DNA of 24,415 nucleotides from a virus (lineage: Duplodnaviria; Caudoviricetes): the IMG/VR virus record IMGVR_UViG_3300011338_000116, positions 1 through 24,415 of that record. One strand, 5' to 3'. The position numbers and the translations under genes were made by a program. Of the stretch, positions 1,233-9,802 are shown in pieces. Below the pieces are notes generated by a model. That model saw nothing but the letters and a program-made list of their open reading frames with translations. It was not told the origin of the DNA and did not search any database. Numbering within the stretch: position 1 is the stretch's first letter; each line of letters begins with the position of its first letter.

Positions 1233-1465
1233 TTATATCTATCCTCTTTAATCGCAATCTCAATTACTTCCTTCATATCATCGCTGATTAATTCGAATAT
1301 ATCCGCGCCATTTACCCAGACCTCAACCAAAATAACCTGTTCAGGGATAGCCGGCTCAATAACTATGCCGGCCTCTTTAACTTCAGGCTCTGCCGGCTCC
1401 CACTCGTACCAGCACTCCAGTGGCTGGCGGCACAACCCTGTCACATGTTCATGCATCAACTTCAT
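1229..1465 (-). CDS. Acidic hypothetical phage protein
   Basis: ATGA overlap with the recombinase stop; SD AAGGAG upstream. Confidence 0.7.
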   Translation of the reverse strand: MKLMHEHVTGLCRQPLECWYEWEPAEPEVKEAGIVIEPAIPEQVILVEVWVNGADIFELISDDMKEVIEIAIKEDRYK

Positions 1466-2130
1466 GCTGTCTCTCCTTGTAATGCCCTGCGGATTGCTTC
1501 GTGAGAAACAATGACCCCATGGCTGGTTTTTAAGATATTTGATATTGCCCTAAACGAAATCCCTGTCGCCCTCATCTCCTTGGCGTACTTCAGCGCTGCC
1601 TGCTCCTCTGGCTTGGCCACCAGCGTGGCAGCTTGACCAGTGCCTTGGATGGCATACCCGAACTTAGCCGACCCACCTAGATGGCCACCCGCCTTGCGCT
1701 TGGCGGCTTGGCCCTGCTTCTGGCGCTCCTTGAGCACCCTGCGCTCATGGCCGGCAAAGCTGCAAAGGATCTCCAGCATCAACTGGGCGTAGATGTTGCT
1801 GGAGTCAGTCACATCGCCGTGCCCGGTGATGATGAGCTTTATTTTTAACTCCTTGCATTTTTTTATAGACTGCAAGGCATCCAGCAGATCGCGGCTGAAC
1901 CGATCCAGCTTGGCCACAATCACAGTCTCGCCTTCTGCCAGGGTGACTCCGTTGGCCTCGAGCCTTGCAAAGAAGGGGTCAGCGCCACTCACGCCGCCAT
2001 CCTCAATGAACTGGTCGATGACTAAGTTGTGCGTTAGGGCATTGCCCTCGATCTGCCTCTTCTGCTCCTGCATAGAGGTGTTGTCCACCTGCTCCGTAGT
2101 GCTCACCCTCACATATCCAAACACCGTCAT
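1462..2130 (-). CDS. Serine recombinase (resolvase/invertase family)
   Basis: Catalytic motifs GYVRVS, EDGGVSG and KLDRFSRD, helix E (FAGHERRVLKERQKQG), then GG..FGY and a short helical C-terminal domain; SD AAGGAG. Confidence 0.93.
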   Translation of the reverse strand: MTVFGYVRVSTTEQVDNTSMQEQKRQIEGNALTHNLVIDQFIEDGGVSGADPFFARLEANGVTLAEGETVIVAKLDRFSRDLLDALQSIKKCKELKIKLIITGHGDVTDSSNIYAQLMLEILCSFAGHERRVLKERQKQGQAAKRKAGGHLGGSAKFGYAIQGTGQAATLVAKPEEQAALKYAKEMRATGISFRAISNILKTSHGVIVSHEAIRRALQGETA

Positions 2131-3752: not shown

Positions 3753-5933
3753 TCACCCCTCATGGTGACCACCTTGGGACAAAATGTTCCACGAATTATT
3801 GATTGGATTTGGCGCAAATCTTCTGAAGATGGAGATCCCAATGGCCCGTTTTACATCGCCTTTTGATGAGCCTGGGACTGCCGCATAGATCTCTGCCCAA
3901 TCCAATTTGTAGGCGTTTGGGTAGTCTCGGCAGTCCTTCGGGGCGTTGGAGCCACGCCGGATAACCACCCCTTCGGGATGCTCATTGATGATGGACTGGA
4001 CGAAAGCTGCCGCCGTGTCGCACTTGTCCATGACGCGCAGTGACTTGTTGTCTTCGATCCTTTGTGCCGCCTCTTGCTTTCTGGAGGATTCGGATGTCGG
4101 ATATGGAATGACCGTGATGCACTGGACATCCTGCATGTTGCCGTGCCTTGTGATCACCACCTCATTGTGGATGTGGGTCTGAAAGCTGATCTCTCTGTGG
4201 ATCGGCTCGTATCGGGTCTTGATGAGCCGCATGAACCTGTTCTTTTCCTCGTCCATGAACAGGATGGCGGTCAGGGTGGCATCACCTGTGAAGGCACTGG
4301 CTCCACGGGCCAGAGCGCTGTCATCGTTGGTCTGTGCGGTCTTGGCGGTGTGGGTGATTATTTTTATTGGGGTGGAGAGTTGAGTGTAAATAGTCTGCTT
4401 GATGGCGGCCATGTAACTGCCGACCTCAGAGTTATCATTCTCATTATCTATCTCTAATGTGGCATTAGAAGTGTCAATAATTAAAAATGGCCTTTCAGTA
4501 GTTGTGTGGCGTATGACATTCTCTGCTAATAATAATATCTCCGGCACTTTAGATCGTTTTGATTCAATAACGATAAACCAATTGGCGACTTCAATTGGGT
4601 CGAGATTCCAATACTTAATGTAGGCATAAAGAGATTGCCGGACTTGATTGGCATCCTCGGTGACATAAAGAATCTTTCTACGGGATTCTGTTTTGAGTGG
4701 GGAGTCTGATAAGGTGAATCCAGCGGCAATCAGGCAGACGGAAATTATTGCTGTGGTCTTGCCCACACCAGGCTGGCCGGCTGTCACTGAGAAACTGTGG
4801 GCGAGAAAGCCATCGATTAAGTACTCGACAGGGTAGAGCTTCGTCAGGTCGAGGGTGAGTTCTTTCCAGTACGGGGCTGGCTGGTCTGTAGGCGGCTGGT
4901 CACTGGCGACTTGAGCCTGCTGAGCTTGGATGTAGGTGGAGAAATCCTCGACTGCCGACTTTCGCTCTTCGGCGCGGCTCGGCGCTGAGTACCCGCAAAG
5001 TTTTGCGTGGTGGAACAGCGTGCCGATGGATACGCCCTTGCCTTGGTGGAACGACTTCCAGTGCGTGTCGATGTCCTGCTCTGACTTGTACTTGCTGCCT
5101 TGGCTGCTCCAGTTGGCCCAGAGTTGATGGCCTTGAGCGCCAAAGGCCGTGTGCAGCGCTTGGCCAATCTCAATCCATGTCGTGTAATCAATGTCTGGGT
5201 TGATGTAAGTCAGCGCATCTGTGGCCTTGCTGTAGTCATCGGTGGAGCTTGACAGGGTTGGCTGCCAAACTGGCACATCCGGCTTTGGCCGTGGCACTTC
5301 AGCCGGCTGGTTGGAGTTGTCTTGCTCAATAACGCCCCACATCGTGAGCAGAGACAGCAGATTGTCATGGGTCTCGTTGGAGAGCTTGCCGTTGAGCTTC
5401 TGGCCGGACAAGAGCACTGACTTGCCTGGGCTTGTTGGCAGCCCGAACACCTCGATCTCTTGGCCGCCGCCGAGTTTGTACTTGGGCTTGATCTTGTCCA
5501 GATCCTCATCAGCCACGAACAGGAAGACATGCCGGCCCCTGCCGGAGACGCTTACCTCCGTGAGTTGATCCTGCTGCTTGACCCACTCGGCCATGCGCTT
5601 GATGGCGATATTGGTCGCACCTGTGGAGTGCTTCATGTCCACATCAAGGCAGACAAGGTACGCGCCACTGGACATGGACGGGGTCTGCATCACGATGCCC
5701 AGATAGTCGCCGGCTGGCGCGGCATCCATCGTGAGAACTTCGGATGCAGAGTAAAGCTGGTCGGGTGGAGTGTCACGCGCTACACCTTGGCCGGTCTTCT
5801 TGTAGGGGATCTTCTTGCCATCGGCTGTGGTGGCAAAGGTGCAGAACACTGCTGATGGATGCTGCTCAATCAGCTTGACAGCAATGGCCTGAGAGTTTGA
5901 AAACTCAGCGGCCATTTTGGGTAAAATACTCAT
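3753..5933 (-). CDS. Primase-helicase: Prim-Pol/AEP domain, PriCT-2 domain and AAA_25/RepA-like helicase
   Basis: CLDVD and EVSVSGRGRH (AEP motifs); DYTTWIEIGQALH...WS...KY...WKSF...GTLFH (PriCT-2); Walker A GQPGVGKT, Walker B LIIDT, and ARGASAF. Confidence 0.92.
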   Translation of the reverse strand: MSILPKMAAEFSNSQAIAVKLIEQHPSAVFCTFATTADGKKIPYKKTGQGVARDTPPDQLYSASEVLTMDAAPAGDYLGIVMQTPSMSSGAYLVCLDVDMKHSTGATNIAIKRMAEWVKQQDQLTEVSVSGRGRHVFLFVADEDLDKIKPKYKLGGGQEIEVFGLPTSPGKSVLLSGQKLNGKLSNETHDNLLSLLTMWGVIEQDNSNQPAEVPRPKPDVPVWQPTLSSSTDDYSKATDALTYINPDIDYTTWIEIGQALHTAFGAQGHQLWANWSSQGSKYKSEQDIDTHWKSFHQGKGVSIGTLFHHAKLCGYSAPSRAEERKSAVEDFSTYIQAQQAQVASDQPPTDQPAPYWKELTLDLTKLYPVEYLIDGFLAHSFSVTAGQPGVGKTTAIISVCLIAAGFTLSDSPLKTESRRKILYVTEDANQVRQSLYAYIKYWNLDPIEVANWFIVIESKRSKVPEILLLAENVIRHTTTERPFLIIDTSNATLEIDNENDNSEVGSYMAAIKQTIYTQLSTPIKIITHTAKTAQTNDDSALARGASAFTGDATLTAILFMDEEKNRFMRLIKTRYEPIHREISFQTHIHNEVVITRHGNMQDVQCITVIPYPTSESSRKQEAAQRIEDNKSLRVMDKCDTAAAFVQSIINEHPEGVVIRRGSNAPKDCRDYPNAYKLDWAEIYAAVPGSSKGDVKRAIGISIFRRFAPNPINNSWNILSQGGHHEG

Positions 5934-5959
5934 GTTGTTGATCTCGCGGTTGACGACAA
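5930..5959 (-). CDS. Putative 9-aa leader peptide (M)SSTARSTT translationally coupled to the primase
   Basis: SD AAGGAG (5971-5966), 6 nt, TTG 5959; its TGA (5932-5930) overlaps the primase ATG (5933-5931). The primase ATG has no good SD of its own. Confidence 0.55.
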   Translation of the reverse strand: MSSTARSTT

Positions 5960-6023
5960 GTTGTTCTCCTTCTAGCTGGAGCTAGTTACCCCTGATAGTT
6001 CACGCTGTCAGGGGTTTTTCTTT
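5934..6023 (+). ncRNA. Predicted antisense (countertranscript) RNA to the primase leader
   Basis: Plus-strand -10-like TAAAAT at 5922-5927 (TTGAAA at 5897-5902, suboptimal 19-nt spacing) and a plus-strand intrinsic terminator at 5988-6023, with no credible plus-strand gene nearby. Confidence 0.5.
5988..6023 (+). terminator. Intrinsic terminator, oriented antisense to the flanking genes
   Basis: ACCCCTGATAG-TTCACG-CTGTCAGGGGT forms an 11-bp stem (one G.U pair, valid only in the plus-strand RNA) followed by TTTTCTTT. Confidence 0.75.
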
Positions 6024-6037
6024 GCGGGACAGCAATT

Positions 6038-7090
6038 CTAGTCTTTGGACTTTTCTTTCACCAAACTGGCAGCAGCGTGCTTCTTGCCAATCAGGTCTTC
6101 GCTGATCTGGATGTCCAGCTTGGCAATGGCCGATGGCGACTTGAGATCGAATGCTTGCGGATAGGACTTCAAAGCCTCGTAGGCCAAGGCGTAAGACTTC
6201 CAGAACTTGGTCTTGCGACCTGGTCGCAGTGTCCAGCCTTGGATGGGTGATCCGCTGGTGATCTGACGGTTGGCTGACTCCAGCACCGCCTCCGACCACA
6301 TGGCTGCAAGCTGGGCCAATTCAATCTCCTCGCCAGTGACATGCGGCACTGCAATGGTGTCATCCTTATCGGCCTGCTTGACAAGGTCGGCAAACTCTTT
6401 GCGTGCGTTGTCCTGCACCTTCTGCCGCATGGACGGGCAGATGGGCTTGGCCTTGCAGTACTTGCAATTGCTGGTCGATGGGTTGGTTGGTGCGTCATCG
6501 GTCAGCGCGAGGTTGGCAGCGGCCAGTAGGTCGTGGCCGTGCGAGATCAGGTCAGTGCCTGAGACTGTCCACTGGCTGTGACCGGCGCGGGGCTGGAATA
6601 TGTGCATGGTGCATTGGATGGATGCAGGCGCATTCAACATGCGCATAGCTCCAAGAGCGTAGGTCAGCAATTGCTTGTTGTTTTCGGCATCGACTAAGAC
6701 CCTCCCAGTTTTTAAATCGCAAATATGTAAATGATCACCATCCACCAGTACGGCATCAGCCGTGCCGCCCAGAGCATGGTGCAGGGTCTTGAGGCCAGCG
6801 TCCACATTTACCTCGATCATGCGCTTGCGGGGATTGATGACAAGCGTGTTGATAAAGGTGGCGTATTCGTTAGCCATGTCCAGATGGTCATCAGGATAGT
6901 CTTTGGGATTGACTGCCTCGCCTCGTAGAATTTTTTCTGAGAGTTCATGGATCGCCGTGCCGATGGCAGCGGCCTCACCGGCTGGCTCATAGGGCATCTT
7001 CTCTTCCAGCCGGTATGAGCCTGGGCAACTCATCACCCTGTCCATGCGGGATGCTGAGAGTCGGGCGTGCTTGCGGTCAGTGTGCTGCAT
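6038..7090 (-). CDS. DUF2800-type PD-(D/E)XK (Cas4-like) exonuclease
   Basis: HARLSAS, CPGS, GTAIH, GTAD, DLKTG, QLLTYALGA and CKYCKAKPICP (1+3 Cys pattern). Confidence 0.9.
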   Translation of the reverse strand: MQHTDRKHARLSASRMDRVMSCPGSYRLEEKMPYEPAGEAAAIGTAIHELSEKILRGEAVNPKDYPDDHLDMANEYATFINTLVINPRKRMIEVNVDAGLKTLHHALGGTADAVLVDGDHLHICDLKTGRVLVDAENNKQLLTYALGAMRMLNAPASIQCTMHIFQPRAGHSQWTVSGTDLISHGHDLLAAANLALTDDAPTNPSTSNCKYCKAKPICPSMRQKVQDNARKEFADLVKQADKDDTIAVPHVTGEEIELAQLAAMWSEAVLESANRQITSGSPIQGWTLRPGRKTKFWKSYALAYEALKSYPQAFDLKSPSAIAKLDIQISEDLIGKKHAAASLVKEKSKD

Positions 7091-8745: not shown

Positions 8746-8845
8746 GTCCTGAGTCTCGCACAAAAAACTTTTTAGAACAACAAATAATTGATATACAATG
8801 CAACTGCCGCATGTCGCGGCTTAAACGCTAAACAGGAAAAACGCT

Positions 8846-9409
8846 ATGACTACACGGGTTGTTACCGGCAAATGCCGCTTTGTTTATTGCTCAGTGATGA
8901 GCGCACGCAAGAATGAGATGAACGGCAAGGATGAGTTCAGCACGCAAGTGCTTGTCCCCAAGGCCGACACCGAGACAGTGGGGGCGCTGAAGGCTGCCGC
9001 CAAAGAGGCTCTGATGGCCAAGTTTGGAGACAAGATCCCCAAGAATGTGCGCAACCCCTTGCGTGATGGAGACACTGAAACCAAGGCCGATGGTGCGCCA
9101 CTGGGCAAAGAGTACGCCGGCCACTTCTTCTTCAACACCAAGAGCACGAATAAGCCTGGGGCTGTTGACGCCAATGGCCAAGACCTGCTTGGCAGCAATG
9201 ACATCGTCAGTGGTGACTATGGTCGGGTGTCTTTGAATGCCTATGCCTACAGCCAAGCCGGCAACAATGGCGTGTCGTTTGGCCTGAACAACATCATGCT
9301 GGTGGCCAAGGGTGAGCCTCTGGGCGGTGCGCGGCCAAGTGCTGCATCAGACTTTGGCATCAGCAAGTCAGCCGCGCCTGCTGCTCCTGAGTCTGACGAT
9401 AACTGGTAA
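8846..9409 (+). CDS. ssb: DUF2815 single-stranded DNA-binding protein
   Basis: NPLRDGD, SGDYGRVSLNAYAY, GNNGVSFGLNNI and GEPLGG motifs; acidic C-terminal tail ending in an aromatic residue (ESDDNW). Confidence 0.92.
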   Translation: MTTRVVTGKCRFVYCSVMSARKNEMNGKDEFSTQVLVPKADTETVGALKAAAKEALMAKFGDKIPKNVRNPLRDGDTETKADGAPLGKEYAGHFFFNTKSTNKPGAVDANGQDLLGSNDIVSGDYGRVSLNAYAYSQAGNNGVSFGLNNIMLVAKGEPLGGARPSAASDFGISKSAAPAAPESDDNW

Positions 9410-9492: not shown

Positions 9493-9684
9493 ATGAAATA
9501 CATTGCAGCCCACATTCCTGATGAGACTATGACCAAGCTGTCAGCAGTGGCCAGCGGCCTCAAGATGTCGCGGTCTGCTTTGATTCGGCTGGCGCTGGAG
9601 TCTTATCTTGACCGGCCACATCGCCTTGTGAAAGCCGATCAAGCGCAGCAGCCAGCGCCTTCACAGATGACCACAGAGGGCTGA
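9493..9684 (+). CDS. CopG-like ribbon-helix-helix regulator
   Basis: YIAAHIPDETMTKLSAVASGLKMSRSALIRLALESYL fits the RHH pattern; SD GAGG. Confidence 0.8.
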   Translation: MKYIAAHIPDETMTKLSAVASGLKMSRSALIRLALESYLDRPHRLVKADQAQQPAPSQMTTEG

Positions 9685-9802
9685 CAGAGCCAGACATCCA
9701 TCTGGACACCTGTGGCTGCTGGATGCCAGCCTCGCGGCATACGGCATTCATCCTGATCCCGCTGGCCTTGGCCCTGTCTCTGATGTCTTGAACTGATTCC
9801 AT
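9560..9802 (-). CDS. Cro/CI-type (XRE) HTH regulator
   Basis: GIRMNAVCREAGIQQPQVSRWMSGSVSP HTH; divergent from the early operon. Confidence 0.85.
   Translation of the reverse strand: MESVQDIRDRAKASGIRMNAVCREAGIQQPQVSRWMSGSVSPLWSSVKALAAALDRLSQGDVAGQDKTPAPAESKQTATS

Follow-up and report, generated by a model that had tools for sequence, protein, structure and literature searches.

There are precedents for a phage replication gene under antisense control: phage P1's lytic replicon is reportedly controlled by an antisense RNA, and the lambda OOP RNA adjoins gene O. In plasmid R1, the rep gene has a Shine-Dalgarno (SD) sequence of its own, hidden in a hairpin, and antisense-driven attenuators of the pT181/pIP501 type carry a sense-strand terminator in the leader. 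As described in the accessible parts of the papers cited here, the P22 sar RNA, a phage product, acts as a cis-antisense block on a ribosome-binding site (PMC7968456), and the ColE2 antisense RNA acts on the 5' leader of a plasmid gene encoding a primase-type Rep (PMC5304414). The Pseudomonas REx-C element comprises three stem-loops and an optional leader peptide and has been exchanged between Rep families (PMC5304414, in part). In the R1 CopA/tap/repA system, a short leader ORF is coupled to the replication gene and combined with antisense control (PMC5717011, in part). Lambda OOP is a short antisense RNA that terminates by itself, with its promoter where the replication gene region begins; it targets the 3' end of cII, with which 52 bases overlap (PMC5869508 and PMC3349717, each in part). 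In Streptococcus pyogenes, prophage integrases were shown by dRNA-seq to have antisense sRNAs upstream of them (PMC6431027, in part).

Genomic setting and elements of the cassette

The window, i.e., the whole stretch of 24,415 nt analysed here (IMG/VR record IMGVR_UViG_3300011338_000116), is a tailed-phage contig of ~68% completeness. The annotated record nearest to it, at 80.7%, belongs to an uncultured spring phage; other phage matches lie below 60%, and no cultured close relative was found among them. Primase matches to plasmids are partial and below 60% identity. We only infer a freshwater betaproteobacterial host, because the nearest near-full-length match bearing the name of a betaproteobacterium, a Burkholderiaceae MAG contig, reaches 40%, and an Acidimicrobium MAG contig contains a match of 57%.

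The cassette, a unit of ~120 bp, is situated between the DUF2800 nuclease gene and the primase gene (Table 1). All long genes near the site are on the minus strand, and there is no plus-strand gene for the SL3 terminator to end. The preliminary description had read this leader as a leader-peptide and antisense-RNA switch on the primase gene, and every element that it named was recovered in place; it had overlooked SL1, which lies over the upstream ORF (uORF), and the sense -10 box. On the plus strand, SL3 forms 12 pairs with a 4-nt loop (z = -6.0).

Taken singly, several of these motifs are weak. AAGGAG occurs 14 times in the window against 11.3 expected, which is no enrichment, and the overlap of the uORF TGA with the primase ATG at 5933 is of a kind found in any ATG-A start, where a codon 2 beginning with A automatically supplies a TGA in the -1 frame. 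A promoter scan of the window returned seven sigma70 matches, and the antisense promoter site was not among them because the TTGAAA at 5897 sits 19 nt away and is unconserved. A TGn extension is absent before the antisense -10 of the window (GGG-TAAAAT).

Table 1. Positions of the cassette elements and flanking genes in the window.
Feature	Position	Strand	Remarks
Primase-helicase gene, 726 aa	3753..5933	-	PriCT_2 + AAA_25; PHROGs DNA primase; likely target
TTGAAA, -35-like hexamer	5897..5902	+	19 nt ahead of antisense -10; unconserved, doubtful
Antisense -10 box TAAAAT	5922..5927	+	Predicted promoter, in primase codons 3-4; TAnnnT in 80/80 cassettes
uORF, 9 codons + TGA	5959-5930	-	TTG start at 5959, 6 nt past SD; lineage-specific
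SL1, 11-bp G-U-rich hairpin, loop UCGC	5933..5958	+	Forms on antisense strand only
Predicted antisense RNA, ~89 nt, three stem-loops	5934..6022	+	Ends predicted
Shine-Dalgarno AAGGAG	5971-5966	-	Sole strong SD in leader
SL2 palindrome	5972..5985		Sequence variable among relatives, pairing maintained
SL3, intrinsic terminator for plus-strand RNA	5988..6023	+	sar-like GUUnnCGC loop, U-tract
Sense -10 box TAGAAT	6040-6035	-	Predicted primase promoter; its TAG is the DUF2800 stop in the window
DUF2800 / PD-(D/E)XK nuclease gene	6038..7090	-	Upstream of primase; other genes instead in many relatives

Elsewhere in the window, a CopG-like ribbon-helix-helix ORF (9493-9684, plus strand) overlaps an HTH repressor ORF (9560-9802, minus strand) after the SSB gene, and in the spring relative each of the two is annotated as a gene of its own. 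The SNF2 helicase and SSB genes are separated by a divergent promoter region (8763-8846) with a sigma70-like site at 8771-8799.

Conservation across relatives

Cassettes were collected from primase relatives down to ~52% identity, in a set of 168 records comprising loci L001-L168 without L042, plus the window, some contigs being included more than once. Sixteen records lacked a primase anchor and two were cut short; the other 150 yielded 80 distinct cassettes, in which the primase start was chosen by means of a residue pattern. TA[GA]AAT followed by an A-tract was located 82-116 nt ahead of the primase start in 80/80 cassettes; both elements were search criteria, yet all anchored, uncut records contained them. 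In 21 of 75 cassettes, the sense -10 is kept where its TAG closes no long upstream frame.

The reverse strand of primase codons 3-4 reads TAnnnT in all 80 distinct cassettes, as TAAAAT (41), TATAGT (16), TATGAT (15), TAAGAT (3), TAGAAT (3) or TAAACT (2), and the box persists across Ile/Thr/Ser and Leu/Ile codon changes. Identical residue pairs elsewhere in the primase genes, used as a control, give TAnnnT in 178/1361 cases (13%), and other gene starts in 6/281 (2%). The 80 cassettes are not 80 independent events, because they fall into few clades, with six codon combinations only. No conserved -35 was found among the cassettes for either promoter. In the upstream-gene comparison, which covered 41 relative loci, two of them cut short, the cassette was kept in 39/39 relatives with contigs reaching past it, while the upstream gene varies.

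Folding, covariation and strand bias

When compared with shuffled sequences, the region 5915-6025 folds with a z of -4.4 on the plus strand and -2.1 on the minus strand. Across the 30 sequences of the window's clade, of which 27 are distinct, 98.3% of the SL1-SL3 cells are paired; 0/500 shuffles reach this value, and slid controls are 27-50% paired. Covariation of the hairpin, which had been put forward in the preliminary description as a check, was indeed detected, with 7/27 pairs compensatory in the window's clade (SL1 1, SL2 2, SL3 4), in an analysis where the shuffle ignores relatedness and the structure tested is the fold of the window itself. The two compensatory pairs of SL2 involve changes in 11 and 10 sequences.

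The pairing is also biased towards one strand. G-U cells on the antisense versus the sense strand number 26 vs 1 in SL1 and 22 vs 1 in SL3, SL2 being neutral. A second clade (37 cassettes), with unrelated leader sequence, has an antisense 5' hairpin of its own, with a mean of -9.9 kcal/mol antisense vs -4.2 kcal/mol sense over 15 haplotypes, and its terminator contains 7 compensatory pairs. In ten short-leader haplotypes the 5' hairpin has no strand bias on average (-3.6 vs -3.3), and over the whole collection the antisense fold is better than the sense fold in 66/80 cassettes. U-rich tails were counted in the 71 cassettes with a recognised loop, the other 9 of the 80 being left unscored; they occur on the antisense side in 71/71, which is partly a result of selection, and on the sense side in 0/71, in agreement with the earlier proposal that the hairpin is oriented to terminate plus-strand RNA only.

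The predicted antisense RNAs measure 69-103 nt across the cassettes (median 89). Between SL1 and SL2 lies the anti-SD, which is unpaired in the minimum-energy fold; in the ensemble it is only partly unpaired (0.36-0.97). The conserved -10, the covarying, strand-biased hairpins and the terminator give good comparative support to a predicted ~90-nt antisense RNA of the kind first suggested for this leader. We consider the antisense cassette to be real and conserved and, judging from these sequence features, probably transcribed. A depth peak at 5918-5991 in run X1, one of eight unstranded contig sets that were mapped, was dropped as transcript evidence because contigs of many relatives collapse on the common element and carry no information on strand; such sets do not show transcript ends either.

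Proposed mechanism and start layouts

We consider it fairly probable that the locus is a conserved sar/ColE2-like cis-antisense cassette that blocks translation of the primase, with tap-like coupling as an addition in one lineage. A promoter within the first primase codons would give rise to a ~90-nt, three-hairpin antisense RNA (~5934-6022), which would pair with the primase mRNA along its entire 5' leader and block the ribosome-binding site. The primase mRNA would begin just past TAGAAT, at ~6028, and both transcripts would therefore overlap over nearly the whole leader. In the window's lineage, ribosomes probably load at AAGGAG/TTG and, after nine codons, start again at the primase ATG that overlaps the stop; a blocked SD would then shut off the primase. 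In most relatives, which have no uORF, the SD is placed on the primase start itself. The physiological effect would probably be a gene-dosage brake or a timing control of phage DNA replication.

The start layouts vary among the cassettes. Conservation of the SD-uORF-ATGA arrangement, which the preliminary description had proposed to examine in related phages, holds within the window's clade and breaks down outside it: an out-of-frame uORF is present in 29/80 cassettes (28 of the window's clade plus L112) and absent from 51/80; in 49 of these, an SD lies at most 14 nt from the primase start, and two (L036 and L039) use the same SD as the uORF cassettes for an in-frame ATG. Among the 49 direct-SD cassettes, 37 have an extra in-frame ATG ~nine codons upstream with no evident SD. 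The 28 uORFs of the clade, 26 with TTG and two with ATG (L034 and L035, where the overlap with the primase ATG is retained), all stop on the primase ATG. In a 33-row primase tree, the order of the uORF and in-frame layouts did not resolve.

The strong SD is invariant in all 30 cassettes of the window's clade and is followed by a start codon 6-9 nt downstream; in the window, no SD precedes the primase ATG at 5933, and no stable sense hairpin forms at the primase start, where the centroid is unpaired. The interchange of TTG with ATG, together with the in-frame variant, points to AAGGAG as the true ribosome entry in this clade, which would make reinitiation coupling likely there. The sequence of the leader peptide itself is likely irrelevant, because substitutions in the uORF change residues and keep SL1 pairing. 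As far as can be judged from the compared sequences, the leader peptide is not the core of the cassette; it is a local, lineage-specific addition. One further sequence, P0012, has a window-type primase N-terminus fused to an L036-type in-frame leader, which suggests that cassettes recombine between strains.

The same substitutions, which preserve SL1 pairing at the expense of the residues, lend themselves to a rather improbable reading in which the antisense unit is real and the uORF incidental: its sequence would be set by SL1, the primase would start at its own SD-less ATG, and the RNA would act either as a cover over the region upstream or through decay of the duplex. The lack of a uORF in 51/80 cassettes and the automatic nature of the ATGA overlap when codon 2 starts with A fit this account, but the invariant SD with its suitably spaced start codon in 30/30 clade cassettes, the TTG/ATG interchange in two lineages and the in-frame use of the same SD by L036 and L039 argue against it.

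With still lower probability, the antisense -10 could represent a convergent promoter that causes transcriptional interference, with the terminator merely insulating the upstream operon and RNA-RNA pairing being irrelevant. The two -10 boxes do face each other, ~110 bp apart, and SL3 would be explained by a terminator alone; however, antisense-specific 5' hairpins in two clades of different sequence and the covariation of SL2 are left unexplained. Antisense-driven attenuation was rejected, given the U-rich sense tail in 0/71 cassettes and no sense-strand terminator in the leader.

Comparison with described antisense systems

In the cis-antisense reading, a predicted promoter and an intrinsic terminator on the opposite strand would bracket the target SD, as in sar-like blockers of ribosome-binding sites. 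The SL3 stem and its GUUnnCGC loop, which is also that of the Rfam sar consensus, resemble the P22 sar terminator; the sar model (RF00262) scored 16.1 bits against the window, under a cut-off of 43, and matched in the terminator part only (model positions 35-62). P22 sar is 68 nt long, has two hairpins and targets the antirepressor gene ant, whereas the cassette has three hairpins and is followed by a PriCT_2/AAA_25 primase gene rather than an ant start. The likeness to ColE2 and REx-C lies in an antisense RNA directed against the leader of a primase-type gene, but those are plasmid systems and the cassette belongs to a phage. Moreover, according to the accessible part of its description, the REx-C core spans 175-194 nt with an antisense promoter proposed inside stem-loop 3, whereas the cassette spans ~120 nt and has its predicted promoter in the coding start.

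The analogy with R1 drawn in the preliminary description stands in part. Antisense control is a common feature, as is a leader ORF that overlaps the rep or primase start, here in the window and in a further 27 cassettes from its clade. The resemblance is otherwise loose: the predicted RNA covers the leader SD directly, the leader is missing from most relatives, and the primase ATG lacks both an SD that a leader ribosome could unmask and a stable hairpin that could hide one. By lying over the SD itself, the predicted RNA is closer to P22 sar or to pMV158 RNAII than to R1 (PMC5717011, in part). In geometry the cassette can be likened to lambda OOP (accessible parts of PMC5869508, PMC3349717 and PMC5415839), but no cII-like gene is overlapped, and the predicted RNA ends ~15 nt before the DUF2800 stop. 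The streptococcal antisense sRNAs face integrase genes, whereas the cassette RNA would face a primase gene, and the two are likened by description, not by sequence.

An Rfam scan of the window gave no gathering-level match, including to plasmid antisense families (ctRNA_pGA1, 14.6 vs 45 bits); the weak matches to NsiR1, sar, HIV SL3 and SpF11 were all under the cut-off and were discarded. No description of the cassette was found in the literature searched. In the viral RNA catalogue PMC10690425, the upstream-domain table has no PriCT_2 row and the searchable files contain no short SL1 motif; its alignment archives, which lay outside the search, may contain the motif. The accessible part of PMC5737381 does not mention the cassette. 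Control of the kind proposed here has been described for plasmids and for phage P22. If the proposal is correct, uncultured freshwater phages of a common group restrain their replication enzyme with antisense control in the manner of plasmids. One RNA switch would then serve three start layouts (direct SD, in-frame leader and coupled uORF) and two primase families, and the layout series offers natural material for testing the origin of leader coupling.

Mobility and wider occurrence

A near-identical cassette is found before a different, Prim-Pol/PriCT_2 primase. It precedes the primase directly in L060, whereas in L046 a 19-codon stub plus a single small gene intervene. In the region L046:1050-1650, and likewise in L063, L076 and L086, the cassette leads into this stub, which retains the antisense -10; next come another small, T-tract hairpin, a small ORF and the different Prim-Pol primase. 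In loci of this type the gene has been exchanged and the switch retained. At L127:1241-1500, a cassette with a stub ORF precedes an int-alpA match above the Rfam cut-off and then the primase; these are two stacked RNA elements, and the int-alpA match is separate from the cassette.

Priming signals formed by hairpins have been described for plasmid primases, and the association of the cassette with two different primase families would suit hairpins that function as DNA, as an origin or a primase-recognition site, or an RNA that serves as a replication primer. We regard this as very unlikely: the oriented U-tract and -10 suit a discrete RNA, and similar units lie before integrases, which require no origin. 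A chance assembly of motifs in a short intergenic spacer, suggested by the shortness of the single motifs and the miss in the promoter scan, is the least credible explanation, since conservation despite changing flanking genes, covariation, the 80/80 TAnnnT box and the G-U strand bias contradict it and the conserved unit therefore lies beyond chance.

The similar units were retrieved with a generic pattern that has an A-tract, a GCGnnAAC-loop hairpin and a reverse -10 built in, and that matched 72 viral loci with 18 distinct hairpins. Of the 17 for which a downstream ORF was scanned, nine precede an integrase or recombinase, two a replication initiator, one an HTH_17 and one an HNH protein, and four gave nothing. 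In L195-L266, unrelated phages carry such GCGnnAAC-loop reverse-terminator units ahead of genes for integrases, excisionase-like proteins, Rep and HNH proteins, and the units possibly constitute a sar-like superfamily absent from Rfam, a wider RNA family to which the cassette also points.

A broader scenario, which we put forward tentatively as rather improbable, is that integrase-less freshwater phages persist as plasmid-like prophages, with a swappable antisense cassette setting both copy number and mutual exclusion and with incompatibility types defined by the variants of SL2 and of the loop. The cassette would in that case belong to an unmodelled, cross-phylum sar-like superfamily with a GUUnnCGC loop, which would guard integrase, excisionase and replication genes. 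Among five complete relatives, a tyrosine integrase was found in 0/5, CbiA/ParA in 0/5 and a serine resolvase in 3/5. The window itself contains a small serine resolvase gene (1462-2130, minus strand), which bears on the question of lifestyle. Finally, the same loop type, together with a reverse -10-like box, occurs before a primase-related region on a proteobacterial MAG contig (L173:1780-1870).
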